A stretch of DNA of 64,000 nt, taken from a virus. The notes beneath the pieces were generated by a model that worked only from the letters and a program-made list of their open reading frames with translations, was not told the origin of the DNA and did not search any database. The stretch lies in the IMG/VR virus record IMGVR_UViG_3300042197_002147, positions 92,712-156,711 of that record; one strand, 5' to 3'. This document shows, in pieces, positions 475 through 50,088 of the stretch. Within the stretch, counting starts at the first letter, position 1, and each line of letters opens with the position of its first letter. Made by a program: the position numbers and the translations under genes.

Positions 475-828
475 ATGACAAGAGATGAATTATTGGCTTA
501 TCATTCGGAATTGTGTGCAGATGCAAAGGCATTAATGAGTTTAAAAAATAAAGATTATGCTGGAAACGAAGGCATAGAACCATTTGCAAATTTTACAAGA
601 GTAGAGGCAATGGGCATTTGCAAAACAGAACAAGGATTTATGGTCAGACTCACCGATAAGATGAGTCGTCTTTCTTCCTTTATTCGTGCAGGAAAAATGC
701 ACATAAAGGACGAATCGTTCAAAGACACTTGCATTGATGTAATCAACTATATGGTTCTTCTTGCCGCATATTTAAAAGATAAAGAGCAATCTGACAAGAA
801 TAATATTGGTACAACAAATAAATCTTGA
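475..828 (+). CDS. DUF1599 / nucleotide-modification-associated (MazG-like) protein
   Basis: KNKDY..PFANF...RLTDKMSRL...ESFKDTCIDVINY pattern. Confidence 0.7.
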   Translation: MTRDELLAYHSELCADAKALMSLKNKDYAGNEGIEPFANFTRVEAMGICKTEQGFMVRLTDKMSRLSSFIRAGKMHIKDESFKDTCIDVINYMVLLAAYLKDKEQSDKNNIGTTNKS

Positions 829-841
829 TATAATAACTTTC

Positions 842-2320
842 ATGTCTTTTTATACTAGTGTATTTTCTTATGGTAACAAAATTCTTTACAGAGAACGAAA
901 CGAAAAGGGTTCTGTAAAGGATGAAATTTATTTCAAACCATGTCTTTATGTAAATACTGACAAAGAAACAAAGTATAAAAGCATTTATGGTAAAAGTCTT
1001 GAGCGAGTAGAATTTGAAAGCAAAGACGATTACATGAAATTTATAGAAAGATACTCCGATGTGTCTGGCTTTGAAATACATGGTGAGATGCAGGCGGAGT
1101 ATCAATTTATCAGAAACAAGTATGGAGACATAAAACCAAATTTTGATCTTCTTGATATTGCTTATATTGATATCGAAACTACTTGTGATGTTGGTTTTCC
1201 AAAGATAAACCAACCTGAAGAAAAAATACTTGCAATTACCATCAGTAGAAAGAATGAAGAACCTGTTGTTTTTTGTCTTGGTGATTATATTGCAAAAAAT
1301 AACGAAACAGTATTTACATTTGATAATGAAGATAATCTTCTGTATAAGTTTTTAGAGCACTATTCAACAAGATGCCCAGATATCATCAGTGGATGGAATG
1401 TTAGATTTTTTGATATTCCTTATCTTTATAACAGAATGAGAATGCTTTTGGGGGAAAAAATTGCGAAGAAACTTTCGCCTTGGAACATTATCAAGGAAAA
1501 GAAGGTTCTTCGGAAGAAAACAGGTCAGGAAGAAACTGTGTTTGAAATTGTTGGTGTTGCTACTTTGGACTATATGGAACTTTATCAAACATTTACATAT
1601 GTCAATAGAGAATCATATAGTTTAAATTACATTTCATACATAGAATTGGGGGAGAAAAAACTTGATTATACTGAATACGAGAGCATTCAAGAATTTTATC
1701 AAAAGAACTTCCAAAAGTTTATTGAATATAACATCAAAGATGTCAAATTGGTTGAACAGCTTGACGATAAGCTCCAACTGATGAAGTTGGCAGTTTCTCT
1801 TGCCTATTCTGCCGGAGTGAATTTTAATGATGTATTTTCTCAAGTAAAAACTTGGGATGTTATTATTTACAATTATCTGGCAAAAAGAAACATTATCATT
1901 CCTTCCAAAAAGAAATCAAGAAAAGACGAACAATACATTGGTGCATATGTAAAGGAACCAATAGTTGGTATGCATAAGTGGGTTGTTTCTTTCGATCTTA
2001 ATAGTCTTTATCCACATCTGATTATGCAATATAACATTTCTCCAGAAACACTTACGGCAGATGGTATGCGTGGGACAGTTTCGCCAGATGGAGTTTTGAA
2101 AAATGGTTTAGTATCAAATGGTTATTTGAAGGAAAACAAAGAAAAAGATTTATCAACTGCCGCAAATGGTACGACATATGTAAAGAATCGCCGCGGATTT
2201 TTGCCAGATTTGATGAATGAAATGTACAAAGATCGTAAAATGTACAAATCAAAAATGATTGAGGCAGAAAAACAACTTGAGGCAGTTAATAATGAGTTAA
2301 AGCAAAGAGGTATTGGTTGA
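842..2320 (+). CDS. gp43A: T4-like DNA polymerase B, N-terminal subunit (exonuclease + palm A)
   Basis: ExoI DIET, ExoII SGWNVRFFDIPY, ExoIII YNIKDV, motif A SFDLNSLYPH; ends within the fingers domain. Confidence 0.93.
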   Translation: MSFYTSVFSYGNKILYRERNEKGSVKDEIYFKPCLYVNTDKETKYKSIYGKSLERVEFESKDDYMKFIERYSDVSGFEIHGEMQAEYQFIRNKYGDIKPNFDLLDIAYIDIETTCDVGFPKINQPEEKILAITISRKNEEPVVFCLGDYIAKNNETVFTFDNEDNLLYKFLEHYSTRCPDIISGWNVRFFDIPYLYNRMRMLLGEKIAKKLSPWNIIKEKKVLRKKTGQEETVFEIVGVATLDYMELYQTFTYVNRESYSLNYISYIELGEKKLDYTEYESIQEFYQKNFQKFIEYNIKDVKLVEQLDDKLQLMKLAVSLAYSAGVNFNDVFSQVKTWDVIIYNYLAKRNIIIPSKKKSRKDEQYIGAYVKEPIVGMHKWVVSFDLNSLYPHLIMQYNISPETLTADGMRGTVSPDGVLKNGLVSNGYLKENKEKDLSTAANGTTYVKNRRGFLPDLMNEMYKDRKMYKSKMIEAEKQLEAVNNELKQRGIG

Positions 2321-2345
2321 CATAAATAAAATGTCGTGATATACT
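2317..2345 (+). promoter_or_regulatory. sigma70-type promoter; leaderless start of the SPOUT-tRNA operon
   Basis: TTGACA-17 bp-TATACT, with ATG at 2353. Confidence 0.75.
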
Positions 2346-2352
2346 TCTCTTT

Positions 2353-2904
2353 ATGGAAACGAGAAACATCATTGACCATTACCATTATTGGAACCATGAT
2401 GCAATACTTGCCGATCTGGATACGAAAAGAAATAATTTTACTGTCTGCTGTTGTAATGTTGGAAACGACTTTAATATTGCAACAATTATTCGGAACGCAA
2501 ATGCCTTTCTTTCTAAAGAAGTTTGGATTTATGGCCGAAAGCAATATGACAGGCGCGGAACAGTAGGAACACACCTTTACACTAAGTTTAGGCATGTAAA
2601 GGAAATTGAAAGTCTCACTAATCAAATTGAAAATCTAAAGCAGACTTATAACTGCGTTAAAGTAATAGGAGTAGATAATGTTACTGATGGAACAAGAATT
2701 TGCTTGCCAATTGACTACTACACTTGGGATTCTGAGTGTCACCATCTCATAATTTTTGGTCAAGAACAAATTGGAATTCCAAAAGAAGTTCTTGACATTT
2801 GCGATGATGTTGTCTATATTAGACAACTCGGTTCGGTAAGAAGTTTGAATGTTGGTACTGCAAGTGGAATTGTGATGTACGATTATTGTAGTAAAGTTCT
2901 TTGA
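2353..2904 (+). CDS. SPOUT (SpoU/TrmH/TrmL-like) RNA 2'-O-methyltransferase
   Basis: NVGNDFNIATIIRNANAF, IFGQEQIGIP and VRSLNVGTASGI motifs. Confidence 0.88.
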   Translation: METRNIIDHYHYWNHDAILADLDTKRNNFTVCCCNVGNDFNIATIIRNANAFLSKEVWIYGRKQYDRRGTVGTHLYTKFRHVKEIESLTNQIENLKQTYNCVKVIGVDNVTDGTRICLPIDYYTWDSECHHLIIFGQEQIGIPKEVLDICDDVVYIRQLGSVRSLNVGTASGIVMYDYCSKVL

Positions 2905-3066: not shown

Positions 3067-3070
3067 TTTT

Positions 3071-3144
3071 GGCGCGGTAGACCAATCGGCAGAGTCGATA
3101 GACTTAAAATCTGTGTAGTGTGGGTTCGAGTCCCACCCGCGCTA
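3071..3144 (+). tRNA. tRNA-Leu(TAA) with short variable loop
   Basis: ATAGA-CTTAAAA-TCTGT arm; 74 nt; 5-nt variable region. Confidence 0.88.
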
Positions 3145-3151
3145 TTTAAAT

Positions 3152-3296
3152 GTACGGTGTCTGTTAAGCAGACTAGGACAATCGGCTGGCCAGCGGTTTG
3201 TCTGAAAAAACAGAGTTTGAGGTCCAATAAACGGGTAAGCGAGGGTCGTAGACCTCACCTCATACGGTTGAATGGATGCAAGTTCCTCGCCGTACT
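3152..3296 (+). ncRNA. Candidate enlarged tRNA-like RNA of unknown function
   Basis: GTACGG/CCGTAC closing stem, GGA-TGCAAGT-TCC T-like arm, several internal hairpins; lies inside the tRNA array. Confidence 0.55.
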
Positions 3297-3303
3297 AAAT
3301 ATT

Positions 3304-3375
3304 GCGGATGTAACTCAATGGTAGAGTGCTAGCCTTCCAAGCTTGCTGTTGAGGGTTCGAGTCCCTTCATCCGCT
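3304..3375 (+). tRNA. tRNA-Gly(TCC)
   Basis: CTTCCAA loop; GCGGATG/CATCCGC acceptor. Confidence 0.93.
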
Positions 3376-3397: not shown

Positions 3398-4195
3398 ATG
3401 AATAAAGATAAAACTATAATTAGATGGATGTTAGAAGAAAATCCCGAAGGAAAATGTCCTTATATTGTATCTTTACCGGGAAAAAAAAGAGAATGGATGG
3501 ATGTCAACAATGGTCATGCATATCGTTGCTTGCCTTTAAGTGTTGCAAATAGTTTTGGTTGGGAAATTTTAAATCCAATATCTTTTAGCGCAACATGGAA
3601 TGGAAATATTGGAAATCAAAATGCCATTAAATTTGATTTCTGTGTAGAAAGTGAAGAAGATAATACCTTCATCAAAAAAAATAATATAAGTTCACACTTC
3701 GGAAATGGTATAATAACATTTTCGTATCTTGGATTTATTTTTAGAACATCCGAGGGGCACAACCTATTTGTAAAAGGTCCAACAAATCATTTTAAGCATG
3801 GCGCGCAAGCACTTGAGGCAATAGTTGAAACTGATTGGCTTCCTTATACATTTACATTGAATTGGAAACTGACAAAACCCAACGAAACTGTCCAGTTTTT
3901 TAAGGGAGAACCACTGGCTACAATTTTTCCAATTCCAAGATATTATCTTGAATCATTCGATGCAGTAGATCAAAGAGAAGATCCAAACTCTGATTTTGCA
4001 AAAGAACATAGAAGTTGGGCAAAAAAGAGAGAAGAAATTAAGTATAGTGAAAACTCTAATCATTCCCTATATACTAAGGGTATTCAGAGTATGGATTCAA
4101 AGAAAAAATTTGAAAACCATCAAAGATCAATAAATGCGTGTCCCTTCCATAGAAAGGAAATAGATAATGGAACAATTTCAAGCGAAAACAATTAA
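3398..4195 (+). CDS. DUF6065 family protein
   Basis: REWMD...HAYRCLPLSVAN.FGWEIL and GP.N..K.G...LEAIVETDWLPYTFT.NW. Confidence 0.75.
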   Translation: MNKDKTIIRWMLEENPEGKCPYIVSLPGKKREWMDVNNGHAYRCLPLSVANSFGWEILNPISFSATWNGNIGNQNAIKFDFCVESEEDNTFIKKNNISSHFGNGIITFSYLGFIFRTSEGHNLFVKGPTNHFKHGAQALEAIVETDWLPYTFTLNWKLTKPNETVQFFKGEPLATIFPIPRYYLESFDAVDQREDPNSDFAKEHRSWAKKREEIKYSENSNHSLYTKGIQSMDSKKKFENHQRSINACPFHRKEIDNGTISSENN

Positions 4196-6797: not shown

Positions 6798-7913
6798 ATG
6801 AACTTGCGTGAACTAACAGACAAACAACTGTTGGATCTTAAGCGTAAACTGGAATATGATATCTCGGAATATCACAACTTTCAGTTGGTTAAAAAGATTC
6901 AATTAAATTCTGCATATGGTGCAATTGGTAATGAATTTTTTCGTTACTATAGCACAGAGATTGCAGAGGCAATTACCCTGTCGGGACAGCTTTCGATTCA
7001 GTTTATTATGAACGAATTGAATGCTTTTGTTAACAAAACTCTAGAAACAAAGGACATTGATTATGTCATTGCATCAGATACTGATTCTGTTTATCTCAAT
7101 TTATCTGGGTTCGTTGATAAGTTCATCTCTAAGCAAAAGTCAACACAAGATGTTGTTGCCTTACTCGACTACCTCTGCGAGAATGTCATTTCTCCTTTCA
7201 TTAAGAAAAGGTATGATGAACTTGCTCAAAAGATGAATGCATATGAAAATAAAATGGCAATGGGTCGTGAAGTTATTGCCGACAAGGGAATCTGGACTGC
7301 CAAGAAGCGTTATATGTTAAATGTGTGGGACAGCGAAGGTGTTCGTTATACTAAACCAAAACTCAAAATTAAGGGTATTGAAACCACACGAAGTTCTACG
7401 CCAGAAATAATTCGAGAACATCTCAAAACCGCAATTGATATTATTCTAAACAAAGATGAGGATGCTCTAATAGAATTTACTGATAAGGTTAAATTGGAGT
7501 TTTTCTCTCAACCAGTAGAAAAAATTGCATTCCCACGAAGCGTAAATGGATTGGATAAGTATAAAGACAATTATTATATCTACAAGAAGTCAACTCCAAT
7601 TCATGTGAAAGCGGCATTAATTTATAACTTTCACATAAAAAAGAATGGATTGGAAAAGAAATACAAACTAATCAATGAAGGTGATAAAATCAAATACTTT
7701 CATTTGAAGAAACCAAATCCATTTGGTGGTGTTAAGGGCGAAGATCATGTTGTTGCATTTTCTACTTCTATGCCAAAGGAGTTTAATTTAGAAGCATATG
7801 TAGATTACGCAACACAATTTGAAAAATCATTTCTTGATCCACTTTCAAATATACTAAATGTAATTGGTTGGAATTACGAAAAGAAAAATACACTTGAGAG
7901 CTTATTTTCATAA
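6798..7913 (+). CDS. gp43B: T4-like DNA polymerase B, C-terminal subunit
   Basis: KIQLNSAYG (motif B), SDTDS (motif C), KKRY, C-terminal clamp-binding TLESLF. Confidence 0.93.
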   Translation: MNLRELTDKQLLDLKRKLEYDISEYHNFQLVKKIQLNSAYGAIGNEFFRYYSTEIAEAITLSGQLSIQFIMNELNAFVNKTLETKDIDYVIASDTDSVYLNLSGFVDKFISKQKSTQDVVALLDYLCENVISPFIKKRYDELAQKMNAYENKMAMGREVIADKGIWTAKKRYMLNVWDSEGVRYTKPKLKIKGIETTRSSTPEIIREHLKTAIDIILNKDEDALIEFTDKVKLEFFSQPVEKIAFPRSVNGLDKYKDNYYIYKKSTPIHVKAALIYNFHIKKNGLEKKYKLINEGDKIKYFHLKKPNPFGGVKGEDHVVAFSTSMPKEFNLEAYVDYATQFEKSFLDPLSNILNVIGWNYEKKNTLESLFS

Positions 7914-37867: not shown

Positions 37868-38476
37868 TCAAGAGAATGCCCGTGAGAGTTCCTTTTGAAC
37901 TCTTGCGGGCATTTTCACATGGCTTTGTGGTCTAAAGTTTTTAGGCATCACATCAAGTGCTCGGCGCGATGTCTCAAGATCATATTTTGTTCTTTGTGTT
38001 TTGTATATTTTCCACATATGATGCATATAGATGTAAAGATTAGCGCGTTTGATGTACAACTGTTCATCAAATTTGATACCCCATTGTTTTAATAAACGAA
38101 CGGTTCGTATTTCGCAGTCTCTTTCCATCTCCATGATGACTCTAAACGCTCTGTCTACTTCTTTGTCAGACCATCTGCCATAATTTCCTATTGATACCTC
38201 ATGCACAATAAATTGTGCATTTGATTCCTTTTTCATTTTTTGATCGGAAGATTCTAACCACTGAAGAAAATGGCAGTATTCGTGCGCCAAGACATTCAAC
38301 CAAACTCCATTGTTTTTGGCCACGCGAATTTCTTTTATTGTTCTGTTCGCAAGAAAATATCCCGAACATCGGGATTCCCCGACATTGACATTTTCGCCTT
38401 TTCCAAATATGAGTTTAAACCCATATTCTCTCAAATGATTGCGAATATGTTTCACGAACTCGGCTTCCTTACTCAT
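37868..38476 (-). CDS. HExxH metallopeptidase-like protein
   Basis: LAHEYCHFLQ...ERDCE. Confidence 0.7.
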   Translation of the reverse strand: MSKEAEFVKHIRNHLREYGFKLIFGKGENVNVGESRCSGYFLANRTIKEIRVAKNNGVWLNVLAHEYCHFLQWLESSDQKMKKESNAQFIVHEVSIGNYGRWSDKEVDRAFRVIMEMERDCEIRTVRLLKQWGIKFDEQLYIKRANLYIYMHHMWKIYKTQRTKYDLETSRRALDVMPKNFRPQSHVKMPARVQKELSRAFS

Positions 38477-38545
38477 GGTGTACCTCCTTCGTTCTCTTAT
38501 ATGTAGGAGTCTACCAAAGTGTTTTTACGAATTCAAGTTTATATG

Positions 38546-38827
38546 TTATTTTTTATTTTGTCTGCGGCGATAATTCAAGTAGGCAGGAAGAACATAACCA
38601 CCAATCATTCCCATTCCGGTTCCGGCCGCGGCGCCTGCGCCTGCAATTTGTGCCTTTTCTGTTGGAATATTTGTCATACCAACTGAATTGGTGTAATCAG
38701 TCATTGCTTTACCATACATCGCACCGGGAATGGCAAGACTTCCCGCAAGTGTTAAATATTTTAATCTCCACTTGTCTGTTGGTGTAAGGAAACCTTCTTG
38801 TAGTAGATGTTGCTTAAATGATTTCAT
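38546..38827 (-). CDS. CTS-like small protein with hydrophobic Gly-rich helices
   Basis: ATAAATA-5 nt-ATG; MKSFKQHLLQE. Confidence 0.65.
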   Translation of the reverse strand: MKSFKQHLLQEGFLTPTDKWRLKYLTLAGSLAIPGAMYGKAMTDYTNSVGMTNIPTEKAQIAGAGAAAGTGMGMIGGYVLPAYLNYRRRQNKK

Positions 38828-38871
38828 GTAACTATTTATGCCGAGTGCTGTTTTACTATCATCACGGGCGT

Positions 38872-38900
38872 AAAAAAACCCGGTGCAACGAGCACCGGGT
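38872..38900 (-). terminator. Intrinsic terminator of the leftward early operon
   Basis: ACCCGGTGC/GCACCGGGT stem plus T7 on minus strand. Confidence 0.8.
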
Positions 38901-38917
38901 CTATGCAGACCAAACAA

Positions 38918-39193
38918 TCAGGAGATGGGAGCGTCGTCCGGGTCGGGGAAGTGTCGCGCCATCAGACTCGGCCCGGGAGGGGGAGTGCCAGGCCATCCTC
39001 GCGGCGCAGACTCACTCAGCACATCCTTGTACCGCTCTGCGAGAATCGGTTGAAGCGGCATATGCTTCACTCGCCGGCGCGCCTCCACGCGAATCCACTT
39101 CGGAACCCGAGGAGTCTTTTGTGGATCCATCAGGTCGTACAGAAACCGAGTGGCGGACAGAATTGCGTTGTACTCCTCATACGGTAGCGTCAT
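38918..39193 (-). CDS. BPSL0761-like hypothetical protein
   Basis: MTLPYE...L..L......PRVP..IR.EA....KH.P; GGAGG RBS. Confidence 0.6.
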   Translation of the reverse strand: MTLPYEEYNAILSATRFLYDLMDPQKTPRVPKWIRVEARRRVKHMPLQPILAERYKDVLSESAPRGWPGTPPPGPSLMARHFPDPDDAPIS

Positions 39194-39353
39194 TGGTGTC
39201 CTCCATGATGTGCTTGAAGCAGTACTGACACAGGACTGCTGACTCTCCCTCGTTCGCAGAGTCGATGTCGCAGGGGAGTTGCGAAACGACGAAACGCTCT
39301 TGCAGTCGCGGAAGCGACTTGGCACAGTTGTCGCAGAAGAATGAATCTCTCAT
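39177..39353 (-). CDS. Small zinc-finger protein (58 aa)
   Basis: MRDSFFCDNC...LCQYC, read from sequence; GAGGA RBS. Confidence 0.55.
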   Translation of the reverse strand: MRDSFFCDNCAKSLPRLQERFVVSQLPCDIDSANEGESAVLCQYCFKHIMEDTNDATV

Positions 39354-39372
39354 GTTGATCGGTGTCCTCTTT

Positions 39373-41706
39373 TTACTTGGCGATCAGGTCGATGAAGCGG
39401 TTGAGCATGACGCGGGACTTCATGCGCTTGGCGGCGGTCGCCATGAACGCATTCTTGATCTTGGTCATGCTGGCGTCTGCCGCAAGCGTGTCCATCGCGT
39501 TGTCGTTCTCCACGCGCATATTAGCGCGGATGATGTACTGCTCCGTGTAACCACTCGCGGTCGGATGCACGATGGAGAAACCGTCATCGCGGTAGGACGC
39601 GATCTGCTTGTTGGTGTACTCGTTGTTCACCGTGCTGTTCTTCTGCACACGCGAACCGTTCTTGTCCTTCGTGTACTCGCGGAACAGGTGGGTCATGTGG
39701 TTCACATTGGGACGACCGTAGAGGAAGAACCCAATCGCATTGCACCCGGTGCGGTCGCGGAACACCTCAAGCAGAGTGTTCGTACTCGTCCCGCCGATCT
39801 CGTAGGTCTTGCGAGTGACCGGATCGGTCAGGAACTTGCGAGTGTAGTAACCGCTGCCGTAGGCAAAGCAACCCGAGGTTTCACCGTCCGTGAGGAACAC
39901 GGAGTGAACGATCTGCAGCCGGTTGTCCTCGCGGAACTTGGGCACGATCTGCATGGCGGCCGCGATGGACTCGTCAAGCGGCGTGCTGCTCAGACCAAGG
40001 CAGCTCGGGAGAGCGTAGTACGACGAACCTTCGGTCTGTCCGAGAGCAATGGCGAACAGGTTTTCCATCGCCTGCTTGAACTGATTCGGGCGCATCTTGG
40101 ACGACAGGAAGTTCAGCAGACTGAACATATGGAACTTAGCGTCGATGTTGGGATCCTTGACATTCCACTGCTGACTGCTGACGCTCTGCTCGTAGTGATC
40201 CTTGTTAGCGAGATCCTTGTGAATCACGCAGCTCGTGAACGCATAGACCTCGAACGGAATGTTGCACCGGCGGCAGAACAGAGCGATCTGCATGAGCTGC
40301 TTCACGGTGTCAAGCAGCGTAGGGCCCATCGAACCCGACCAGTCGATGAACATGACGAGTCCGTGATTCTTGCCCTCGCGCACCACAGCGTTGCGGCGGA
40401 AGATGTCATCGGTGATCTTGTAGTTCACCATGCGAACGGTGTCAAGGACGCCGGTGCGGGCGACCGAGGTACGCTTCGCAGCATCAGCAGCCTTGCGGAG
40501 GTCGAACTGCTTTGCCATCAGCGACACCACCGGCGCAGAGTCCGCAGCGAACTTGGCGTAGTCCTTGCGAGCCCGAGCGAACAGGTCGTCGTGAGTGGCG
40601 ACCGTGTTGGCGGACATGGTGGCGCGGTGCTGCGTGATCAGATCCTGAATCTCTGCGTAGGAGATGATGATCTTGTCCAAGTTGCACGACGGCAGACTAA
40701 AGTACTGATACGAACTGGCCTTCTTGTCGGTCATGTTCTTGACCGCAGAATCGAACTTCTCCTGCGTGATCGAAGAAGGCGCAGCAGACTTGTGCTGCAT
40801 CTTGTTCGCACCCGAACCCGTGGAAGCGCCAGCGTTGTTGCTCTGCGGGGTCGTCTTGTTGGGGTCGCCGTCACCACGCTGGCCAGCACCCTGCTTGCCG
40901 TTGGTGGACGAACCATCGTCCGAAGAATTCGCGTCAGCGTTGTCGATGTCCGACCCGTTGGAATCGTCCTGACCGTCACCACTCGTCGGGATCGGCGTAG
41001 TGTCACCGTCATCGCCGGCGTCACCATCGCCGCCAGAAGTCGCGTTCTGCTTCTCCGCTTCCTCCTTGAGGCGCGACTCGTACTGCCAGATGTCGTCCAC
41101 GATGTTCTTCACATCGTCAAAGGTACGGCAAGCGTCGATGCGCTTGATGAACGACTGCTCCACGGGCGAGAACTGAATACCCGTGTCCATGCAAGTGCCC
41201 ATCTTGTAGTGAAGGTTGATGCGGTCGATCAGCGACAACTTGTTGAGGTCGCGCCCCTTGACGCCGAAGAAGTCGCTGGCGACGAACTGCTCATACGCCT
41301 TGTAGAAGTCGCGGCGCATACCGGGGAACTTCTCCTTCATCAACTTTTCGATGCGGGCGTCCTCCACGATGTTCATGTAGACCTGAGCAACGGACGCATG
41401 AGCGGTTCCGGCGATCTCCTCAGCGGCGCCGCACCACGGGCCCTGCACCTTGTTGTCCGCATCGGTGTGCGGCGTGAACAGCGCGTGACCAACCTCGTGG
41501 CCGACGAGCATATCGTAGACCTCGTTGGTCATGCCCGTCCAGGCGGGCAGGATCAGGACGCGGTTCTTGGTGTCGAACGCGGCCGTGCTGGCCTTGGGGT
41601 TGTGCTGCACGGTGATGTTCTCCGTGGCGAGGATGCGCGCCAGCAGATCCTTGCTGGCGGTGTTGACGGTGCGGGCGGGCGAAGAAACGGTAGAAACAGT
41701 CTGCAT
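39373..41706 (-). CDS. Metallopeptidase-VWA protein (CobT-like partner of MoxR AAA)
   Basis: GHEVGH, NIVEDARIE, acidic linker, MIDAS DWSGSM, STPL, LTDGE. Confidence 0.88.
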   Translation of the reverse strand: MQTVSTVSSPARTVNTASKDLLARILATENITVQHNPKASTAAFDTKNRVLILPAWTGMTNEVYDMLVGHEVGHALFTPHTDADNKVQGPWCGAAEEIAGTAHASVAQVYMNIVEDARIEKLMKEKFPGMRRDFYKAYEQFVASDFFGVKGRDLNKLSLIDRINLHYKMGTCMDTGIQFSPVEQSFIKRIDACRTFDDVKNIVDDIWQYESRLKEEAEKQNATSGGDGDAGDDGDTTPIPTSGDGQDDSNGSDIDNADANSSDDGSSTNGKQGAGQRGDGDPNKTTPQSNNAGASTGSGANKMQHKSAAPSSITQEKFDSAVKNMTDKKASSYQYFSLPSCNLDKIIISYAEIQDLITQHRATMSANTVATHDDLFARARKDYAKFAADSAPVVSLMAKQFDLRKAADAAKRTSVARTGVLDTVRMVNYKITDDIFRRNAVVREGKNHGLVMFIDWSGSMGPTLLDTVKQLMQIALFCRRCNIPFEVYAFTSCVIHKDLANKDHYEQSVSSQQWNVKDPNIDAKFHMFSLLNFLSSKMRPNQFKQAMENLFAIALGQTEGSSYYALPSCLGLSSTPLDESIAAAMQIVPKFREDNRLQIVHSVFLTDGETSGCFAYGSGYYTRKFLTDPVTRKTYEIGGTSTNTLLEVFRDRTGCNAIGFFLYGRPNVNHMTHLFREYTKDKNGSRVQKNSTVNNEYTNKQIASYRDDGFSIVHPTASGYTEQYIIRANMRVENDNAMDTLAADASMTKIKNAFMATAAKRMKSRVMLNRFIDLIAK

Positions 41707-41990
41707 AGACCCCCATTTTACCAAAACCCTGTAAAACCTGCAAGCCTAGAATCTATCTTTTCTAAGTCCTTATAGGACAATGACTTACGCTCTTTTCCGG
41801 GGGGTAGCGTCCGATAATAACTATCATCGCGTCCGATAATATCGAGGTGCGCGAAAAACCCCTGTTTTTATAGGGATAACTAATCCGGACTTTGAAAATT
41901 GATCGTAAGTCCTTTATTATCAGGGGTTTAAGAAAATGGTAGCTGGGGGGTTGCGTCTTTGGCGCCGTTTTGGTAGAATGGGGGTCTATG
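41704..41990. promoter_or_regulatory. Back-to-back leaderless sigma70 promoters with dyad operators
   Basis: TTGCAG-17-TAAAAT (-) and TTGCGT-17-TAGAAT (+), both followed by GGGGGTCT-ATG. Confidence 0.75.
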
Positions 41991-43247
41991 TCTACTCTCT
42001 CTGCCAAGCAGAACTCGTTCGTTTCCGCTCTCGCCTCCATCACCACCGCGTCGCCCGTGTCGCGTCAGGATCTCCTGCGCGCCGCGAACAGCATCGGGCA
42101 GAAGTTCCCGCCCGCGTGGATCGTCAAGGACACCGCGCGCCACGCCGGTCGCGGTCTGTTCCATGTCCCCGAACTGACCGGCGGTGCGGTGACGGCCGCT
42201 CCCGCGACCAAGAAGGTCGCCGCGCCCAAGTCGGAACCCGCGCCCGTCAAGTCGGTGCCGGTTGCGACTGCGCCGGTCAAGATCGCCGCTGCTGCGCCCA
42301 TGCAACTCGCTGGCGCTGCTGCGTCCGTCATGGGTATGACGGGTGGCGAGCGTTCGACGCTCATCCCCGCCGTCTGCCCGGAGTATGTCGCGTGGGGTCA
42401 CTTCAGCGACATCGAAAAGATTCTCAAGACCGGGATGTTCGCGCCGGTGTTCGTCACGGGTCTGTCGGGCAACGGCAAGACCACGATGATCGAACAGGTC
42501 TGCGCGAAGCTCGGGCGCGAGTGCTTCCGCGTCAACATCGTCGCGGAGACTGACGAGGACGATCTGTTCGGCGGTTTCCGTCTGAACAACGGGAACATGG
42601 AGTGGCACGACGGCCCCGTTGTGCTTGCGATGAAGCGCGGCGCGGTGCTGCTGCTTGACGAGATCGACCTCGGCAGCGACAAGCTCATGTGCTTGCAGTC
42701 GGTGCTTGAGGGCAAGGGCGTCTACCTCAAGAAGATCAACCAGTGGGTCGTGCCGCAGTCCGGGTTCACGGTGTTCGCCACCGCGAACACGAAGGGCAAG
42801 GGTGACGAGGCGGGTCGGTTCGCCGGCACTCGCGTCCTCAACGAGGCGATGCTTGACCGTTTCGACTACACCTACGAGCAGGAGTACGCCAGCAAGGCGA
42901 CCGAGAAGAAGATCCTGCTGCGCGCCATGAAGAAGTTCGGCGCGACGGACGATGCGTTCGCGGACAACCTCACCAAGTGGGCGGACATGATCCGCAAGGC
43001 GTACATGGAGGGCGCCTGCGACGAGATCATCTCCACTCGCCGTCTGATCAACATCTGCAAGGCGAACATCGTGTTCGCTGACAAGGTGAAGGCGGTCAAG
43101 ATGGCGCTGTGCCGGTTCGACACTTCCACGCAGGAGTCGTTCTTCAACTCGTACAGCAAGATCGACGCGGAGGTTGCGAACGCGCAGGACGCCGCTGCTG
43201 CTGCCCAGGCGCAGCCCACGCAGACCACCACCACTTGCCCGTTCTGA
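41988..43247 (+). CDS. MoxR/CbbQ-family AAA+ ATPase (phage CobS-like)
   Basis: GLSGNGKT, LLLDEID, ATANTKG, LNEAMLDRF, ISTRRL. Confidence 0.92.
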   Translation: MSTLSAKQNSFVSALASITTASPVSRQDLLRAANSIGQKFPPAWIVKDTARHAGRGLFHVPELTGGAVTAAPATKKVAAPKSEPAPVKSVPVATAPVKIAAAAPMQLAGAAASVMGMTGGERSTLIPAVCPEYVAWGHFSDIEKILKTGMFAPVFVTGLSGNGKTTMIEQVCAKLGRECFRVNIVAETDEDDLFGGFRLNNGNMEWHDGPVVLAMKRGAVLLLDEIDLGSDKLMCLQSVLEGKGVYLKKINQWVVPQSGFTVFATANTKGKGDEAGRFAGTRVLNEAMLDRFDYTYEQEYASKATEKKILLRAMKKFGATDDAFADNLTKWADMIRKAYMEGACDEIISTRRLINICKANIVFADKVKAVKMALCRFDTSTQESFFNSYSKIDAEVANAQDAAAAAQAQPTQTTTTCPF

Positions 43248-43263
43248 TCGGAGGAACCACGCG

Positions 43264-43794
43264 ATGATGCCCATTCCCAAGAATCCTCCCTCCATCTCGG
43301 AGGGTTTTTCGTTTGAAGAAATCGTGAAGGGAATTCAAGAACTCACGATACTGGCGAAAGAAAACACCGTGAGTGATCCGATTCTCGAAAAGGAGTCCGA
43401 AGAAATGTCCGACAATCCGTACTGCGTTCAGCAACCGGGTGCCACACGCACTCCCCTGCGAACACCAAATCAAACTGTGCAGGGAAACCTCACCGCCGCA
43501 ACTCTGCGGGCCAATGGTGGTCGAAAGGTGTTTCACTTCTATTGGACTGGCGAGATGAACGACACGGAGTTTGTGCATCTGTTCGTTGAGTGTCCTCAAT
43601 CCAATCTTGGTTCCGACAGCGTACTCAATCGGACATTCATTCGTGAAGGATCGTGGATGATTGACAACAACACCTTCTACAGTCTGTCCAAGCAGGAGGC
43701 GCGGCGCATTTGGGATTATCTTCAGCGTCAGGGATACGCTTGCGAGAGCGGCGCGCGCCCGTTGGGAATGACCACGCTCATCAAACCGGAATAA
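43264..43794 (+). CDS. Hypothetical protein
   Basis: GGAGG RBS; a second RBS and ATG lie near 43405. Confidence 0.6.
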   Translation: MMPIPKNPPSISEGFSFEEIVKGIQELTILAKENTVSDPILEKESEEMSDNPYCVQQPGATRTPLRTPNQTVQGNLTAATLRANGGRKVFHFYWTGEMNDTEFVHLFVECPQSNLGSDSVLNRTFIREGSWMIDNNTFYSLSKQEARRIWDYLQRQGYACESGARPLGMTTLIKPE

Positions 43795-43798
43795 AACG

Positions 43799-43823
43799 CC
43801 CGCGCCCAGGCGCGGGTTTTTTT
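43799..43823 (+). terminator. Intrinsic terminator
   Basis: CCCGCGCC/GGCGCGGG plus T7. Confidence 0.85.
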
Positions 43824-43833
43824 ATTTTACCCC

Positions 43834-43861
43834 TTGACTATCATCAAATGTTTGTTATAAT
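43834..43861 (+). promoter_or_regulatory. sigma70-type promoter
   Basis: TTGACT-16-TATAAT. Confidence 0.65.
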
Positions 43862-43887
43862 AAATCTCGTTCAAGAAAGGAACACAT

Positions 43888-44103
43888 ATGAACACTACAA
43901 CTACTACCAATTCCAACGCTACGGGTTGCCCGATTGATTTCGCCGCTCTTGAGAACAACTCAAAGGCGGGGCGTGTCACCCTTGATATGCTCGTCGCTCA
44001 GACGGGTATGAACAAGGCATCGGTTCGCAAGGCGCTCGTCAGTCACTTCGGTTCGCGGATTACTTTCGCCCGAGGTCGCGTTGGTGGCATTCGCATCGTC
44101 TGA
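43888..44103 (+). CDS. Small winged-HTH protein
   Basis: TLDML..QTGMN..SVRKAL...RGRVGGI (Rrf2-like wing). Confidence 0.6.
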   Translation: MNTTTTTNSNATGCPIDFAALENNSKAGRVTLDMLVAQTGMNKASVRKALVSHFGSRITFARGRVGGIRIV

Positions 44104-44223
44104 TCGAATGCAACGCGCCGAGTGCAACGCTCGGCACATTCCCGGCCCAATGCCAATGGCAAAGCTTCGGCGTGCCATTGGCATTGGCGCCAGATGGGGT
44201 GTGCCATTTCCACTTTTTGGTGG

Positions 44224-44251
44224 TTGACAAATTATAGGACTCAAGTATAAT
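44224..44251 (+). promoter_or_regulatory. sigma70-type promoter (leaderless)
   Basis: TTGACA-16-TATAAT, ATG at 44259. Confidence 0.7.
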
Positions 44252-44258
44252 GGACAGC

Positions 44259-45008
44259 ATGACCAAGCACCCACTTTTCAAGGTTTGGAGTTTTCCTTCC
44301 GTTCAGATGACGCGCATGAGTGTCATTCGCAGCGAAATGGTCGTTCTCAATGTGAAGTACGAGGACAAGGACAAGGCGAAGCAGACCATCGGCGCGCAGT
44401 TCGATCCTCTCTCGCAGATGTGGTTCTTCAACAAGGACACGCGATGGAACCGCGATCTTGATCTGCACGGCACCGTGATGAAGTCGATCAACGACAACAA
44501 TTGGTTCGTCGGTTTCTCCTACACGGATCGTCGGTCATCTCTGACCAAGTACGAAACTCCGTACTGCAACTACTCCTGGCTCAACCAGCCTCTGACGCCG
44601 GACGAGCTCTCGGACAAGAATCGCGCCACAACCTACACTTGGTACAAGAAGGGCGACGACGGCGGACTGTTCCTGCCTCTCGTTGAGATCGTCATCGTCA
44701 AGCGTGAGGGACATTCGATTTCTTTCGTCGTGGTCTACCAAGATCATCCGATTGATTGTGTGGTGCAGTCCGTTCGTGAGATTCCGATGGAAGAGGCTCG
44801 CAAGTTGTGGGATGTGTGTGAGAAGAACTACAGGCCCAACACATACGGAGCAACGAGCGGATGGAACGCAAAGGCAAAGGACTTCATCGAACACGCGATT
44901 GTGGCGGCTGGTGTGGAAGCACTTGCCGTGGAGTCTGCCGTGAAAACGCCGATGTATCAGCACAAGACGCCTGTGAACAATCCGACCAACTATGCCCTCA
45001 CTGCCTAA
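44259..45008 (+). CDS. DUF5710-containing protein
   Basis: LNVKYEDKDKAK..IGAQFDP...WF. Confidence 0.65.
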   Translation: MTKHPLFKVWSFPSVQMTRMSVIRSEMVVLNVKYEDKDKAKQTIGAQFDPLSQMWFFNKDTRWNRDLDLHGTVMKSINDNNWFVGFSYTDRRSSLTKYETPYCNYSWLNQPLTPDELSDKNRATTYTWYKKGDDGGLFLPLVEIVIVKREGHSISFVVVYQDHPIDCVVQSVREIPMEEARKLWDVCEKNYRPNTYGATSGWNAKAKDFIEHAIVAAGVEALAVESAVKTPMYQHKTPVNNPTNYALTA

Positions 45009-45318
45009 TTCGTACTTTGAGATTGTCTCGGACAACAACATCCCCGGTATGCGGCGACACGGTTTCCGCATTCGTTTCGATAGCGGGTACATGATCTCTG
45101 CCATTTTTGGTACGAACATCTATTGTTCGTGTCCTAATGAAATCACAGAGGTCAATCAGTACCCATCATGTGCCGATGTCGAAGTCGCCATCATTGGCCC
45201 CGATGGCGAGTTCGTGAAGTTCAAGGACGGCGAAGATGTGAAGGGTCGCGTGGCTCCTTCAGAGTTCGTGGAGATTGTTTCGTGGGTCAGCAAGATTGAA
45301 AGGAAAGAAAGCAAGTGA
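44992..45318 (+). CDS. Hypothetical phage protein
   Basis: F.F..GY.IS..FG...Y...EVAI pattern. Confidence 0.6.
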   Translation: MPSLPNSYFEIVSDNNIPGMRRHGFRIRFDSGYMISAIFGTNIYCSCPNEITEVNQYPSCADVEVAIIGPDGEFVKFKDGEDVKGRVAPSEFVEIVSWVSKIERKESK

Positions 45319-45578
45319 ACACCTTTGACAACGGCGACGAGGAAATCTCGTCATTTATGAATGAACTCAACTCCATCGTGAAGAAGGCGAGTGAGAGGTT
45401 CGCGCAGTGCGAGGAACGGCTCGAACAGTTCATCAAGCAGGAACTCATTGAGATTCTTGTCGATGAGAACGGGTACTTTCACTACAGAGTGACGGACAAA
45501 GGCATACAGCAACTCCGCGAGGATGGTCTTGTTCTCCCTCCGGGCGACAACTTCATCAATCCGTGGAGGCTCGCATGA
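45315..45578 (+). CDS. Hypothetical protein
   Basis: GTGA overlap, RBS. Confidence 0.6.
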   Translation: MNTFDNGDEEISSFMNELNSIVKKASERFAQCEERLEQFIKQELIEILVDENGYFHYRVTDKGIQQLREDGLVLPPGDNFINPWRLA

Positions 45579-45850
45579 GTGCCTATCCCCACATGGTCAC
45601 GATTGAACGGGATGGAATCGACGCGAACTATCTGTTCTCTACTGCCGAAGAGGCGGAGAAGTTCTACAGAAAGATGGATCGCCATTACATGATCGTGGAC
45701 TCAGAGACTTGGGTTTTTTCGCCAACGCAACTCCGTGTGTTTGACAAGCACGAAGATGCTCTCGCGGAGGAACTTGACGGGGAAGCACTCGCTCTAAATA
45801 CAGAGGCAGACGAGAACAACGATTTGTTCCGAACCACAGACGGAGAATAA
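45575..45850 (+). CDS. Hypothetical protein
   Basis: ATGA overlap, GGAGG. Confidence 0.6.
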   Translation: MSAYPHMVTIERDGIDANYLFSTAEEAEKFYRKMDRHYMIVDSETWVFSPTQLRVFDKHEDALAEELDGEALALNTEADENNDLFRTTDGE

Positions 45851-45852
45851 AA

Positions 45853-46110
45853 ATGGAAAACAAAAACATCACAGGACGACTTTTGGAAATGGCGGACAGG
45901 TGGCAGAATGCTGACCGCGATGTGTTTCGTGTGTGCCGTGATGCTGCTGAGGAAGTCCGCGTTCTTCAGACGCAGATCGAAGGAATGAAGCGGGAGATTG
46001 CCGTTTATCAGAGCTGGTCATCTCCTCGTTTTTGGCCAGAAACCGGCTACCACACTCAGTATAAAGACCCAACGAGCAGCCTTGGGTGGGGAAAGGGCAA
46101 GGATGAATAA
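45853..46110 (+). CDS. Hypothetical protein
   Basis: GGAG RBS; coiled coil. Confidence 0.6.
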   Translation: MENKNITGRLLEMADRWQNADRDVFRVCRDAAEEVRVLQTQIEGMKREIAVYQSWSSPRFWPETGYHTQYKDPTSSLGWGKGKDE

Positions 46111-46225
46111 TCCTCCGCCCTTTTGGTCGTTCATGCTTCTCGCCTTTGCGCCTGTTTTGGTTCTCGTTCTTTGCGAGGTCTATATCCATGTGAGAGAGGC
46201 GATTCGCAAAAAGTGGTACTACTGA
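46103..46225 (+). CDS. Small membrane protein
   Basis: Single TM FWSFMLLAFAPVLVLVLC. Confidence 0.5.
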   Translation: MNNPPPFWSFMLLAFAPVLVLVLCEVYIHVREAIRKKWYY

Positions 46226-46227
46226 AA

Positions 46228-46479
46228 ATGCCAAACTACGAACCAATAGACTACCGCCTACGCTGCCATACCAAGCGCACCGATCTTCCTGCGGATGTTC
46301 TGCGGGACATTGGTGAGGCGTATGCGGAGATTGAACAGTTGCAAAAGGAGCGCGACGAGGCGAGGCTGCGGACGGGACGCATCTTCAACGAGATCGACTG
46401 CCGAATCGAACACGGCGCCGATAGCAATGGACATCTTGAAGCCATCCGCAACTTGTTCAAGGAGAACAACAATGCTTGA
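46228..46479 (+). CDS. Hypothetical protein (EIE.L..ERDEAR family)
   Basis: Motif shared with 46527. Confidence 0.6.
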   Translation: MPNYEPIDYRLRCHTKRTDLPADVLRDIGEAYAEIEQLQKERDEARLRTGRIFNEIDCRIEHGADSNGHLEAIRNLFKENNNA

Positions 46480-46526
46480 CAAACAATCGCTTGCAGAACT
46501 GGCTGACATTTACAAGGAGAACACAA

Positions 46527-46805
46527 ATGACTGACACCACCCCCAAGTTTGACCCCATCCCCCGCCTTCAGCAGATTGCCGCAACCATTGAGGAGAGTGG
46601 TGCAGACATCTTTGATGCTCCCGCCACCGCTGTTCACTACATTGAGTGCGCCATCAAGGAGATTGAGCGTCTACGCAACGAGCGCGACGAGGCGAGGCGG
46701 ATGCTGTGTATCGAATTGGAGGAGCATGGACCTGTCCGCCGGAACAAGGAGCAGATCGCCATGTGGTGTGGCTGGGACTGCTTCAAGGAGGACGGCAATG
46801 GATGA
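46527..46805 (+). CDS. Hypothetical protein (ERDEARR..GWDCF family)
   Basis: AAGGAG RBS; shared motif. Confidence 0.6.
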   Translation: MTDTTPKFDPIPRLQQIAATIEESGADIFDAPATAVHYIECAIKEIERLRNERDEARRMLCIELEEHGPVRRNKEQIAMWCGWDCFKEDGNG

Positions 46806-47079
46806 CAAGAGATGGCAGGAACTGATGCAACCCTTCAACGGGGACGAGAGCATCACGCTCACACCCGAAGAACTACAAGAGGGATGGCATTGGTGCGAGG
46901 AGTGGGATGGACTGTTGATTCATCCCGATGATGCCGAATTTCGCTCTTGCGCCTGTTCGTGGATGGATAAGTATCGCACACCCGAACGAATGGAAAGGCA
47001 CAAAAGGCAAGAAGCACTTGATCGAATCTCGGCCTTGGACGATGAGATGGGGCGAAACCCCGGACAGGAAAAACAATGA
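46798..47079 (+). CDS. Hypothetical protein
   Basis: GWHWCEEWDGLLI...C.C. Confidence 0.6.
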   Translation: MDDKRWQELMQPFNGDESITLTPEELQEGWHWCEEWDGLLIHPDDAEFRSCACSWMDKYRTPERMERHKRQEALDRISALDDEMGRNPGQEKQ

Positions 47080-47261
47080 TACAAGAACAACTTCAAAAAG
47101 AGAATGAGATTCTAAAGGCAGAGCTCGAAGCAACCAAAAATGCCCTTTACAAGATGGAGGAGCGCGCCGTTTGGTGGGAGCATACCGCCAATGTGTACAG
47201 GGAACAAATCGAAGAAATCAACGACAACCCGGTTGGATCAATCACCGAAGGCGCCGATTGA
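47076..47261 (+). CDS. Hypothetical coiled-coil protein
   Basis: ATGA overlap. Confidence 0.55.
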   Translation: MIQEQLQKENEILKAELEATKNALYKMEERAVWWEHTANVYREQIEEINDNPVGSITEGAD

Positions 47262-47263
47262 CA

Positions 47264-47668
47264 TCATTTGTCGTCATGTAGATTGCGAACAGGAACACCG
47301 AGTCTGCTGCCAACTCTGCGGTAGATTCGGTCTTTCTTTTCATTGTCAGTCTCAAAGTAAATCACAGACGGCTTGTGTTGCTTCACGAAGTGTTGCACAT
47401 GGGAGAACACCGAGGACAGAACTTTTGTTCTGTCCTTTTTTTGTGGCGCCACTTTGTGCTTGCCGTCTACGCGAAATGCGACATAGACTTCCCCTGCGCC
47501 GCTTTCCGGTCTTTCACCGACTCCAAATATTTTGGTTTCAAGTTTATTTTTCTTGTCAATGTATTTGGTATGCACGCCGTTCCATTCTGTTGTCATATGG
47601 GGGTGCTGCACTGGGACACGGCGTTTAGGCGAAAAGATTTCAGAGAGGTACTGACGGAATGATTTCAC
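47264..47668 (-). CDS. CTS-like late protein, paralog of 52798
   Basis: MKSFRQYLSEIF; upstream TATAAATA and GGAG. Confidence 0.7.
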   Translation of the reverse strand: MKSFRQYLSEIFSPKRRVPVQHPHMTTEWNGVHTKYIDKKNKLETKIFGVGERPESGAGEVYVAFRVDGKHKVAPQKKDRTKVLSSVFSHVQHFVKQHKPSVIYFETDNEKKDRIYRRVGSRLGVPVRNLHDDK

Positions 47669-47942
47669 TAGTAGATGTTCTCCAAGTAGTATTTATATGT
47701 CTGTGATCGGGGGTATGGAGGGGGTGTGGAGTGGGGTAAGGTGGGAGAGAGTGGGACTGGCGCCATTTGTGTGCCATTTTGGGGGTGCCGAGGGGGTCGC
47801 TGGCAGTGCGGAGCAAAAGGGTGGCGGGAATGTGGCACTTAGGCGTATTTCTAGACTTCCCCCGCCACGCGCCAAAGGTCCGCCCAAAGCTTAGAGCCCA
47901 TTGCCACGGCAAAACACGCCAATAAATCTAGGGTTTTTTCTC

Positions 47943-47971
47943 TTGCGTCCGATAACCTTTTCCTATACAAT
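47943..47971 (+). promoter_or_regulatory. sigma70-type promoter (leaderless)
   Basis: TTGCGT-17-TACAAT, ATG at 47979. Confidence 0.7.
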
Positions 47972-47978
47972 ACATCCC

Positions 47979-48305
47979 ATGAAGAACGATTCTACCCCCG
48001 TGGATGACTTTGACGCAAACATCACCTGTGAGGAATTCTACATGGAACGCGATTGGGAAGACGACGAGGACGAGGATTTCGAGGACGAGGATGAGCTCGA
48101 TGACGACTCGGACGACTTTGATGACGAGGACTCAGACGATGAGGACTACGAGGACGATGACGAGGATGACGACTACGAGGACGACGACGAGGATTGGGAG
48201 GACATGGAGGATGATGTCTCCGACTGCTTTGAGTGCGACGGCAGCGTGAGCGAGAATGGGTTCGCACGCCTTTTCGACATGGAGCGCCGTGGTTATTTCG
48301 CATAA
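47979..48305 (+). CDS. Extremely acidic small protein
   Basis: Central run of ~55 aa almost entirely D/E. Confidence 0.75.
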   Translation: MKNDSTPVDDFDANITCEEFYMERDWEDDEDEDFEDEDELDDDSDDFDDEDSDDEDYEDDDEDDDYEDDDEDWEDMEDDVSDCFECDGSVSENGFARLFDMERRGYFA

Positions 48306-48339
48306 TGTCGTTTCGCAATTCGTTTACGGAATCTCACAC

Positions 48340-48606
48340 ATGAATCTCAAGAAGAATCAAATCAAGTTTTTGGAGTGGATCCACGCTGAAGGCGTGAATG
48401 CCGGTCAGACCAGTTTCTCTCGCGCCTTTCTCAAGACCGTTGCAATGAAGAACGGAATGGCGTGGGCGCCGGCTTGGATCGTCAAGAACAAGTCTCGAAA
48501 CATCAATCGCGGGTACTACAGCATTCCTGAGTACGCAACCTATGTGGCTTCGCTCGGAACCGTCACGGTGACGACTGAGCCCGCTACGGAAACTGTAGGC
48601 GTTTAA
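48340..48606 (+). CDS. Stand-alone paralog of the AAA ATPase N-terminal domain
   Basis: PAWIVK...R...RG.(Y/F).(I/V)PE shared with 41988. Confidence 0.7.
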   Translation: MNLKKNQIKFLEWIHAEGVNAGQTSFSRAFLKTVAMKNGMAWAPAWIVKNKSRNINRGYYSIPEYATYVASLGTVTVTTEPATETVGV

Positions 48607-48685
48607 AGACCCATCTTCTCCCCTAGAGTGGGGGGAGAGGTAGTTTGTTCTACTTTCTCCCCTCACTCGCCTATTGAAAGACACC

Positions 48686-49087
48686 ATGCCACGAGAAAAC
48701 ATCATTGAAGTGATTCTGAACGAGGGCCGCGGTTCTCGCCTTTGGAAGTGGAGTCCGAACCTGACTGAGCATGAGTTCCCGCTGTGGTGGCAGGATCTCA
48801 AGGATTCGGATTTCATCAAGTTCTACTTCAACATCCGTTCGCTGCCCGGAAAGGTTCAGCCTTACAAGGCCATGACGAATGGCCGCAGCGACGCGCAGCG
48901 TATGCCGGGGGATCCCCTGCACTACCGGCCGTATTACTACTGCCACTTCAACGAGATGGACGATTCGTTCATCGCAATCGGTGAGGAAACGCTGCGATAC
49001 CGCCCGAGTTCACGCCGAGATTGGCGCGAGCACTGGCGCGATTGGGTGATGAAGCGAGAACAAGACCGAGCCGCAAATGCCTACTAA
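48686..49087 (+). CDS. Hypothetical protein
   Basis: ORF with early-region codon usage. Confidence 0.6.
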   Translation: MPRENIIEVILNEGRGSRLWKWSPNLTEHEFPLWWQDLKDSDFIKFYFNIRSLPGKVQPYKAMTNGRSDAQRMPGDPLHYRPYYYCHFNEMDDSFIAIGEETLRYRPSSRRDWREHWRDWVMKREQDRAANAY

Positions 49088-49110
49088 TGTAGTGCATTAG
49101 GACTCGTTCG

Positions 49111-49139
49111 CCCCGTAGGTTCGCCTACGGGGTTTTTTT
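49111..49139 (+). terminator. Intrinsic terminator
   Basis: CCCCGTAGG-TTCG-CCTACGGGG plus T7. Confidence 0.88.
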
Positions 49140-49397
49140 ATAGCAATGAATAGGCATATGCCTAACAATGTACAACAATGCTATGCAATAGGCGCACAGA
49201 GTCCGATAACTGCACTATCATCGTCCCATAACGATACTATCACCGCGTCCAATAATAACGCGGGGCGCAGCGTAGGGGCGCAGTGTCCAATAATAACTTT
49301 ATTTGTGGGAGTACGGGGTTTGTACGGGTGCTCGAGCTCCCCTAGAATCACAGGGTTTTCTGCGATAGGCGCCCAAAACCCCCATGAATTACAGGGT

Positions 49398-49426: not shown

Positions 49427-49433
49427 GATACCC

Positions 49434-50069: not shown

Positions 50070-50088
50070 TCTCAGGAAGGAACATACA

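Follow-up and report, generated by a model that had tools for sequence, protein, structure and literature searches.

The window analyzed here is the terminal 64 kb of a 156.7-kb IMG/VR record (estimated completeness ~70%, GC ~33%) and comes from an uncultured freshwater T4-like phage. A T4-type replication module is present, with a family-B polymerase in two genes, a UvsX-like recombinase and a DnaB-like helicase. The two halves of the gp43-type DNA polymerase (window positions 806-2320 and 6798-7913) are separated by 4.5 kb, which contain a SpoU gene, six tRNAs, a 145-nt RNA, a DUF6065 gene and a 2OG-Fe(II) oxygenase gene. Downstream of SpoU/TrmH, the gene order is tRNA-Leu(CAA), tRNA-Gln, tRNA-Leu(UAA), a 158-nt gap and tRNA-Gly(UCC). 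The 145-nt element (3152-3296, plus strand) occupies this gap and leaves spacers of only 6 nt on its 5' side and 7 nt on its 3' side (Table 1); its sequence and coordinates, and its location between two real tRNAs, are as given in the first-pass annotation. Short A/U-rich spacers divide all tRNAs of the operon, and the neighboring tRNAs are CCA-less. We looked for promoter-like and terminator-like sites between the operon tRNAs and saw none; therefore, the Leu(UAA)-Gly gap appears to belong to one tRNA precursor. Two promoter-like sites, one ahead of the SpoU/TrmH-like gene and one further downstream, are likely the starts of this predicted Leu-Gln-Leu-X-Gly precursor.

Two other regions of the window were also noted. 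A complete one-piece tmRNA gene (61646-62041) with the tag ANNNNYMAIAA is located amid further phage tRNA genes. In addition, positions 38000-52000 have a GC content of 50-59% inside the ~33% GC genome, and the Pfam and PHROG matches of the large ORFs in this stretch were limited to a GP88 domain and a DUF5710 domain. It may have been acquired from elsewhere or result from chimeric assembly.

Table 1. Positions of the 145-nt element, its parts and neighboring features in the window, and of tRNA-Tyr genes with the same T loop in other loci
Feature	Position	Strand	Remarks
Promoter-like site	2317-2345	+	ahead of SpoU/TrmH-like gene; 11/12 consensus matches
SpoU/TrmH-like methylase gene	2353-2904		upstream of tRNA array
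Second promoter-like site	2792-2820	+	11/12 consensus matches
tRNA-Leu(UAA)	3070-3145		5' neighbor of the 145-nt element
Spacer TTAAAT	3146-3151	+	6 nt, after tRNA-Leu(UAA); putative 5' leader, presumably removed by RNase P
P1 5' strand, GUACGGU	3152-3158	+	acceptor-like; pairs with 3289-3295
P2 hairpin, GUCUG-UUAAG-CAGAC	3159-3173	+	5 pairs, 2 with compensatory changes
P3 hairpin, GGACAA/UUGUCU, internal loop, GCU/AGC	3176-3203	+	9 pairs, 3 compensatory
Purine-rich junction GAAAA	3204-3208	+	nearly invariant in alignments
Long arm P4-P5-P6	3209-3269	+	61 nt; 15 pairs, 7 with compensatory changes
P4	3209-3211/3267-3269	+	base of long arm
P5, TGAGGT/ACCTCA	3218-3223/3257-3262	+	in long arm
One-sided loop	3224-3240	+	17 nt, between P5 and P6
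P6, GAGG(G)T/ACCTC	3241-3256	+	tip of long arm
Tip loop UCGUAGA	3246-3252	+	UCGUA invariant in 12 sequences
T arm	3272-3288	+	GGA/UCC stem; 7-nt loop UGCAAGU at 3277-3283
P1 3' strand, GCCGUAC, and unpaired discriminator-position U	3289-3296	+	no encoded CCA
Spacer before tRNA-Gly(UCC)	3297-3303	+	7 nt; putative 3' trailer
tRNA-Gly(UCC)	3304-3375		3' neighbor of the 145-nt element
tRNA-Tyr(GUA), T loop UGCAAGU	L038:5288-5368		ARAGORN call
tRNA-Tyr(GUA), T loop UGCAAGU	L044:5536-5617		ARAGORN call
tRNA-Tyr(GUA), T loop UGCAAGU	L073:1320-1400		ARAGORN call

ARAGORN made no call on the element, and no Rfam family matched it, or any of the size classes of its family, at the gathering threshold or at E up to 10. 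Its minimum-energy fold includes the closing stem, the first hairpin, the GGACAA/UUGUCU hairpin and the T-like hairpin. Because the folding energy alone is not significant (z of -1.5 to -1.75), the case for a structured RNA is comparative and not thermodynamic.

Homologs were collected from loci fetched via the upstream SpoU gene and then by a metagenome scan. The SpoU-anchored loci contained the element in 11 contigs, with 75-79% identity, and the metagenome scan added more; the final set comprised 12 distinct long-form sequences from related viral and metagenome contigs (75-81% identity). Loci fetched via the downstream DUF6065 gene had neither the tRNA array nor the element, an exact 22-mer scan of viral contigs gave no match, and a further pattern scan of viral contigs revealed no additional members. 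In some close relatives (L028:2337-2540, and the same in L029-L031), the slot between tRNA-Leu(UAA) and tRNA-Gly(UCC) is occupied by a small ORF of ~60 codons and no RNA. In the relatives that were compared, the flanking tRNA-Gly was 100% identical and the element 75-81% identical, indicating that sequence drift has left the fold intact.

RNAalifold analysis of nine sequences yielded 39 pairs, 14 of them with compensatory changes. In the alignment of all 12 sequences, which was fitted to the fold model and is hence biased towards it, 98.7% of the pair cells were standard pairs and 15 of the 39 pairs were changed on both sides. When the 3' partners were slid by 1-3 columns as a control, pairing was 34-45% and only 0-3 pairs were changed on both sides. 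Each of the 8 helices contained at least one compensatory pair. It should be noted that the 12 sequences represent approximately four clades, so that shared ancestry inflates single-column covariation, and a search for extra (pseudoknot) pairs was uninformative since, with few clades, many unrelated columns covary. For this reason, we placed weight on whole helices rather than on single pairs. On this comparative evidence, the 145-base stretch is a real, conserved folded RNA gene.

The long-form fold is a five-way junction composed of P1, P2, P3, the P4-P5-P6 arm and the T arm. All seven pairs of P1 are kept across the 12 homologs, with two changed on both sides. P2 follows P1 without a linker and occupies the place of the D arm; its loop in homologs is either UUAAG or GUAAAG. 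The outer helix of P3 (3176-3181/3198-3203) closes a hairpin whose GGCC tetraloop (3188-3191) is invariant, and the consensus of the tip loop of the long arm across the long forms is UCGUA(G/A)A. In the T arm, GGA/UCC covaries with GGG/CCC in homologs, and below it are two mismatches, A.C at 3272/3288 and U.U at 3273/3287. Much of this structure had been anticipated in the first-pass annotation: the closing stem GTACGGT/GCCGTAC, the hairpin GTCTG-TTAAG-CAGAC, the T-like arm GGA-TGCAAGT-TCC (3274-3286) and a GGACAA/TTGTCT pairing, listed there as a competitor of an anticodon-like arm, are all kept in homologs with compensatory changes. The long arm was also placed correctly, but the single TGAGGTC/GACCTCA helix drawn for it is replaced by two nested helices that the homologs back.

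The anticodon-like arm itself did not fare as well. This proposed Phe-like arm with an 8-nt loop, TTTGT-CTGAAAAA-ACAGA, can be drawn, but shows no compensatory change; 94% of its cells are pairable, mostly as weak pairs. It is mutually exclusive with P3 and P4, both of which covary, and column 59, located within the supposed anticodon loop, covaries with column 122 (A-U to G-C). A role as frameshift suppressor, one of those offered in the first-pass annotation, is likewise unsupported.

The description of the RNA as tRNA-like was borne out by the 7-bp acceptor-like stem, the T arm and flanks resembling those of the neighboring CCA-less tRNAs. The acceptor stem with its unpaired discriminator is kept in all homologs. 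The T arm conforms in part: its geometry and the U54...A58 spacing are present (UGCAAGU), but 49:65 and 50:64 are mismatched and position 55 is G. The U8/N9 linker and the G18G19 D arm are absent from the element, as is a canonical 5-bp anticodon stem with a 7-nt loop; instead, the third arm ends in the GGCC tetraloop, and the 7-nt tip loop, with C at position 33, sits at the end of an arm that has at least 14 bp and a 17-nt bulge. The length of the element is 145 nt versus the 70-95 nt expected of a tRNA, and neither the Rfam tRNA model (RF00005, at E up to 10) nor ARAGORN matched any size class. Lacking U8, G18G19 and a canonical anticodon arm, the element, as judged from its sequence, cannot decode. 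Stop-codon recoding was considered separately and rejected, as TAG serves as a stop.

Shorter forms of the family, of 80, 89, 95 and 96-98 nt, were detected in other viral and metagenome contigs, with 11 distinct sequences in the 96-98-nt class. Every size class sits in phage tRNA arrays with tRNA-like spacers. The forms have several features in common: the 7-bp stem is followed directly by a hairpin, the T arm is preceded by GA or GAGA and has A.C mismatched at its stem position 49:65, and the 3' strand is followed by an unpaired U in all size classes. The shorter forms share the T-arm sequence, and the 89-nt form has the T loop UUCAAGU. At 50:64, most forms have U.U; the 89-nt and 95-nt forms have G-C, a switch that speaks for a genuine T stem of five positions directly adjoining the acceptor stem. 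In the short form, 7 of 26 pairs showed covariation. The short-form covariance model detected the 80-nt (48.7 bits), 89-nt (37.1 bits) and 95-nt (29.5 bits) forms and scored the long forms at 26-29 bits and the window's own copy at 19.7 bits; the long-form model detected the short form weakly. The forms differ in the triplet at the tip: the 145-nt form has GUA, the 96-98-nt form CUA and the 80-nt form UGC. Two variants carry the tip motif outside a 7-nt loop. Neither the long nor the short form had a BLAST match among 50,697 cultured phage records, and a pattern scan of 185,579 prokaryote genomes likewise returned nothing. Being absent from Rfam in all its size classes, the family is uncatalogued as far as these searches reach, and the sequences indicate that related forms persist across distinct phage lineages.

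In two loci, the short form ends one or two bases ahead of a permuted (two-piece) tmRNA gene. In L080, it occupies positions 493-589 and the Rfam permuted-tmRNA match begins at 591 (591-872), and in L092 (2228-2324) it is located directly before the tmRNA acceptor piece. ARAGORN merges the T arm of the short form into its permuted tmRNA call. Several other sequences in the tRNA arrays also caught our attention. Directly before the 89-nt member in L034 is a second tRNA-like gene without an ARAGORN call (4043-4127), which has a normal D arm and T arm with A.C at 49:65; its extra arm is long and its anticodon region odd. On the minus strand of L082 (11903-12007), a tRNA-like sequence encodes CCA and has a canonical T arm; one of its loops resembles an anticodon loop with UCU, but no D arm is recognizable and ARAGORN does not call it. 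Unexplained inter-tRNA spacers of 110-196 nt, some of them GC-rich, were found in L015 (713-869), L038 (5103-5212) and L108 (677-872); possibly, these are further structured RNAs.

The T loop provides a clue to the origin of the family. Among ~200 distinct tRNAs of the fetched loci, UGCAAGU occurs only in three tRNA-Tyr(GUA) and one tRNA-Thr; the three tRNA-Tyr loci had been fetched independently of this motif, and the tRNA-Thr locus with a pattern containing it. The three tRNA-Tyr genes (Table 1), which are close relatives and effectively one lineage, resemble the element in the unusual T loop with G at position 55, in the U50.U64 mismatch, in adjoining tRNA-Gly(UCC) and in carrying GUA in a 7-nt loop on a 5-bp stem. 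They differ from the element in being class II cloverleaves of 81-82 nt that have a D arm, U33 and A73 and that ARAGORN calls. As UGCAAGU is also the T loop of true tRNA-Tyr genes in related phages, the family likely descends from a tRNA. Perhaps the ancestor was tRNA-Tyr specifically, but the case for this is weak, because these genes form one lineage, alignment does not discriminate among tRNAs and other forms have CUA or UGC tips. The tip hairpins of L027 and L117 had their best match in tRNA-Tyr anticodon stem-loops (13/17), whereas the best match of the L024 and L017 tips was not tRNA-Tyr, and local alignment of the elements against 204 tRNAs singled out no tRNA type. No tRNA-Tyr was found in the window's record; in phages that have the CUA form, a normal tRNA-Tyr is present as well.

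Stable RNAs in the T4 tRNA cluster have been known for about fifty years. The analogy with them drawn in the first-pass annotation is apt. RNA C (species 1, rnaC, 139 nt) and RNA D (species 2, rnaD, 119 nt) map to the end of T4's tRNA cluster; the element is likewise within a T4-type tRNA cluster and of similar size. The ends of rnaC are paired, as in the element, and enclose two inner hairpins and a T arm that directly adjoins the 3' strand. However, the T arm of rnaC is canonical (CCGGG-UUCGAAU-CCCGG), whereas the family of the element has UGCAAGU with A.C and U.U mismatches, and the five-way junction of the long form is unlike the T4 stable RNAs. Both covariance models (R1 and R2) were run against T4 positions 68000-75000 and gave no match to rnaC or rnaD. 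The literature continues to list the roles of both T4 RNAs as unknown (PMC3014915; PMC9697503), and a catalogue of structured RNAs of viruses (PMC10690425) mentions tRNA-like candidates.

The tRNA-like domain of tmRNA is similar to the element as well: it combines an acceptor stem and a T arm, and its D region is reduced. Some members of the family abut tmRNA. The element itself has A3-U70 in place of G3.U70, lacks a reading frame for a tag and matches no Rfam tmRNA model. YrlA-type Y RNAs are tRNA-mimicking non-coding RNAs that can sit in phage tRNA arrays, and bacterial Y RNAs had been named as tRNA mimics in the first-pass annotation. A Y RNA reading of the element is not supported: RF02553 (YrlA) did not match the element and gave sub-threshold matches only, on neighboring tRNAs; TROVE (PF05731), the Ro60/Rsr partner, had no match in the 156.7-kb record (~70% complete); and both ends of the element are in an acceptor-like stem, not a Ro-binding one. 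The element is a candidate for the known class of stable tRNA-like RNAs in phage tRNA clusters.

We consider it rather probable that the element is a free-standing, tRNA-derived non-coding RNA gene, whose product is a 'tRNA-framed' RNA acting as a non-decoding tRNA mimic. It would be transcribed inside the early Leu-Gln-Leu-X-Gly tRNA precursor of the phage, and its acceptor-like 7-bp stem and abutting T arm would lead to excision by host tRNA-maturation enzymes. RNase P would cut at G3152 and 3' trimming would occur after U3296; CCA would probably be added, and the product would be a stable RNA of ~145 nt. It should be noted that, with P1 and P2 joined without a linker and A.C and U.U mismatches in the T stem, stacking of the acceptor stem on the T arm is not assured, and hence neither is recognition by RNase P, RNase Z or the CCA-adding enzyme. 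As to function, our guess is that the RNA most likely engages a protein recognizing tRNA shape, for which it would be a decoy, sponge or scaffold; the nuclease decoy and RNP scaffold roles put forward at first pass are both possible. Its target might even be a host tRNA(Tyr)-directed anticodon nuclease, a guess to which we give a low probability. It was proposed because the tip loop carries GUA and because a phage tRNA-Tyr counters a defence of this type, a retron effector that degrades host tRNA-Tyr (PMC11555353). Against tRNA-Tyr mimicry, the tip has C where tRNAs have U33, and the other classes have CUA or UGC.

A more general version of the mimic is a modular family, in which a constant handle for tRNA-like processing is combined with an exchangeable cargo hairpin that mimics an anticodon loop. 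The handle would consist of the acceptor stem and a T arm deliberately weakened by A49.C65, and the cargo would imitate a particular tRNA in each form through GUA (145 nt), CUA (96-98 nt) or UGC (80 nt). Such RNAs might act as decoys against tRNA-cleaving host defences or as charged carriers kept off the ribosome. We regard this scheme as speculative and somewhat less probable than the tRNA(Tyr) nuclease target.

An equally improbable alternative to a trans-acting mimic is that the element is a cis-acting processing ('punctuation') module, which provides RNase P and RNase Z sites or shapes the precursor, with the excised RNA as a by-product. The short forms directly before tmRNA in L080 and L092 fit this idea, as their 3' cleavage could create the tmRNA 5' end. 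However, the window copy is flanked by two tRNAs that already supply RNase P and RNase Z sites, and P3-P6 and the GGCC, UCGUA and GAAAA loops, none of which a cleavage signal needs, are conserved or covarying. Moreover, the small ORF in the slot of L028-L031 implies that the array works without the element.

It is also conceivable, but unlikely, that the RNA is an aminoacylated tRNA-like carrier outside decoding, whose mismatched T stem bars EF-Tu and the ribosome. All forms have G1-C72 and the unpaired U73, and many short forms also have C2-G71 and G3-C70; together, these are the bacterial tRNA-Gly acceptor set according to E. coli identity rules. In addition, A49.C65 is kept in every form and U50.U64 in most, and T-stem positions 49:65 and 50:64 tune EF-Tu affinity. 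However, the window copy has U2-A71 and A3-U70, which is not the Gly set, GlyRS also uses the anticodon, and no partner transferase was identified. Slightly less credible again is a trans-acting regulatory or self-associating RNA that works via exposed loops, including kissing loops. Conserved loops are palindromic in the long (GGCC), 96-98-nt (UCUAGA) and 80-nt (CUUGCAAG) forms, and CUUGCAAG of the 80-nt form is fully complementary to the T loop UGCAAGU. However, the long-form tip loop UCGUAGA is non-palindromic, no RNA target was identified and the loops are too short for statistical power.

A decaying tRNA pseudogene or functionless spacer is disfavored and, in our view, very improbable: the element does evolve faster than the flanking tRNAs and is missing from the same slot in close relatives, but compensatory changes occur in all eight helices, several loops are invariant and the forms persist in distinct phage lineages. 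The least probable reading, and only marginally worth entertaining, is a working, grossly enlarged decoding tRNA (tRNA-Tyr for the long form, an amber suppressor for the short form), for which the tip loops U-C-GUA-R-A (long) and U-U-CUA-G-A (short) and a record without tRNA-Tyr could be cited, but the loop-bearing arm of at least 14 bp with its 17-nt bulge is far longer than the 5 bp of an anticodon stem, neither U8 nor G18G19 is present, the long form has C33, the discriminator is U where tRNA-Tyr has A73, no form is accepted by ARAGORN or the Rfam tRNA model, TAG is a stop, and CUA-form phages already have a normal tRNA-Tyr.

The element would be of modest interest if the RNA were a mere processed by-product. 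It adds an independent, covariation-supported family to the stable RNAs of tRNA clusters, in uncultured freshwater T4-like phages. This family comes in several sizes, with a shared tRNA-type handle, a variable body and signs of tRNA descent, which suggests that the tRNA frame has been repeatedly recycled by phages to deliver non-decoding RNAs.
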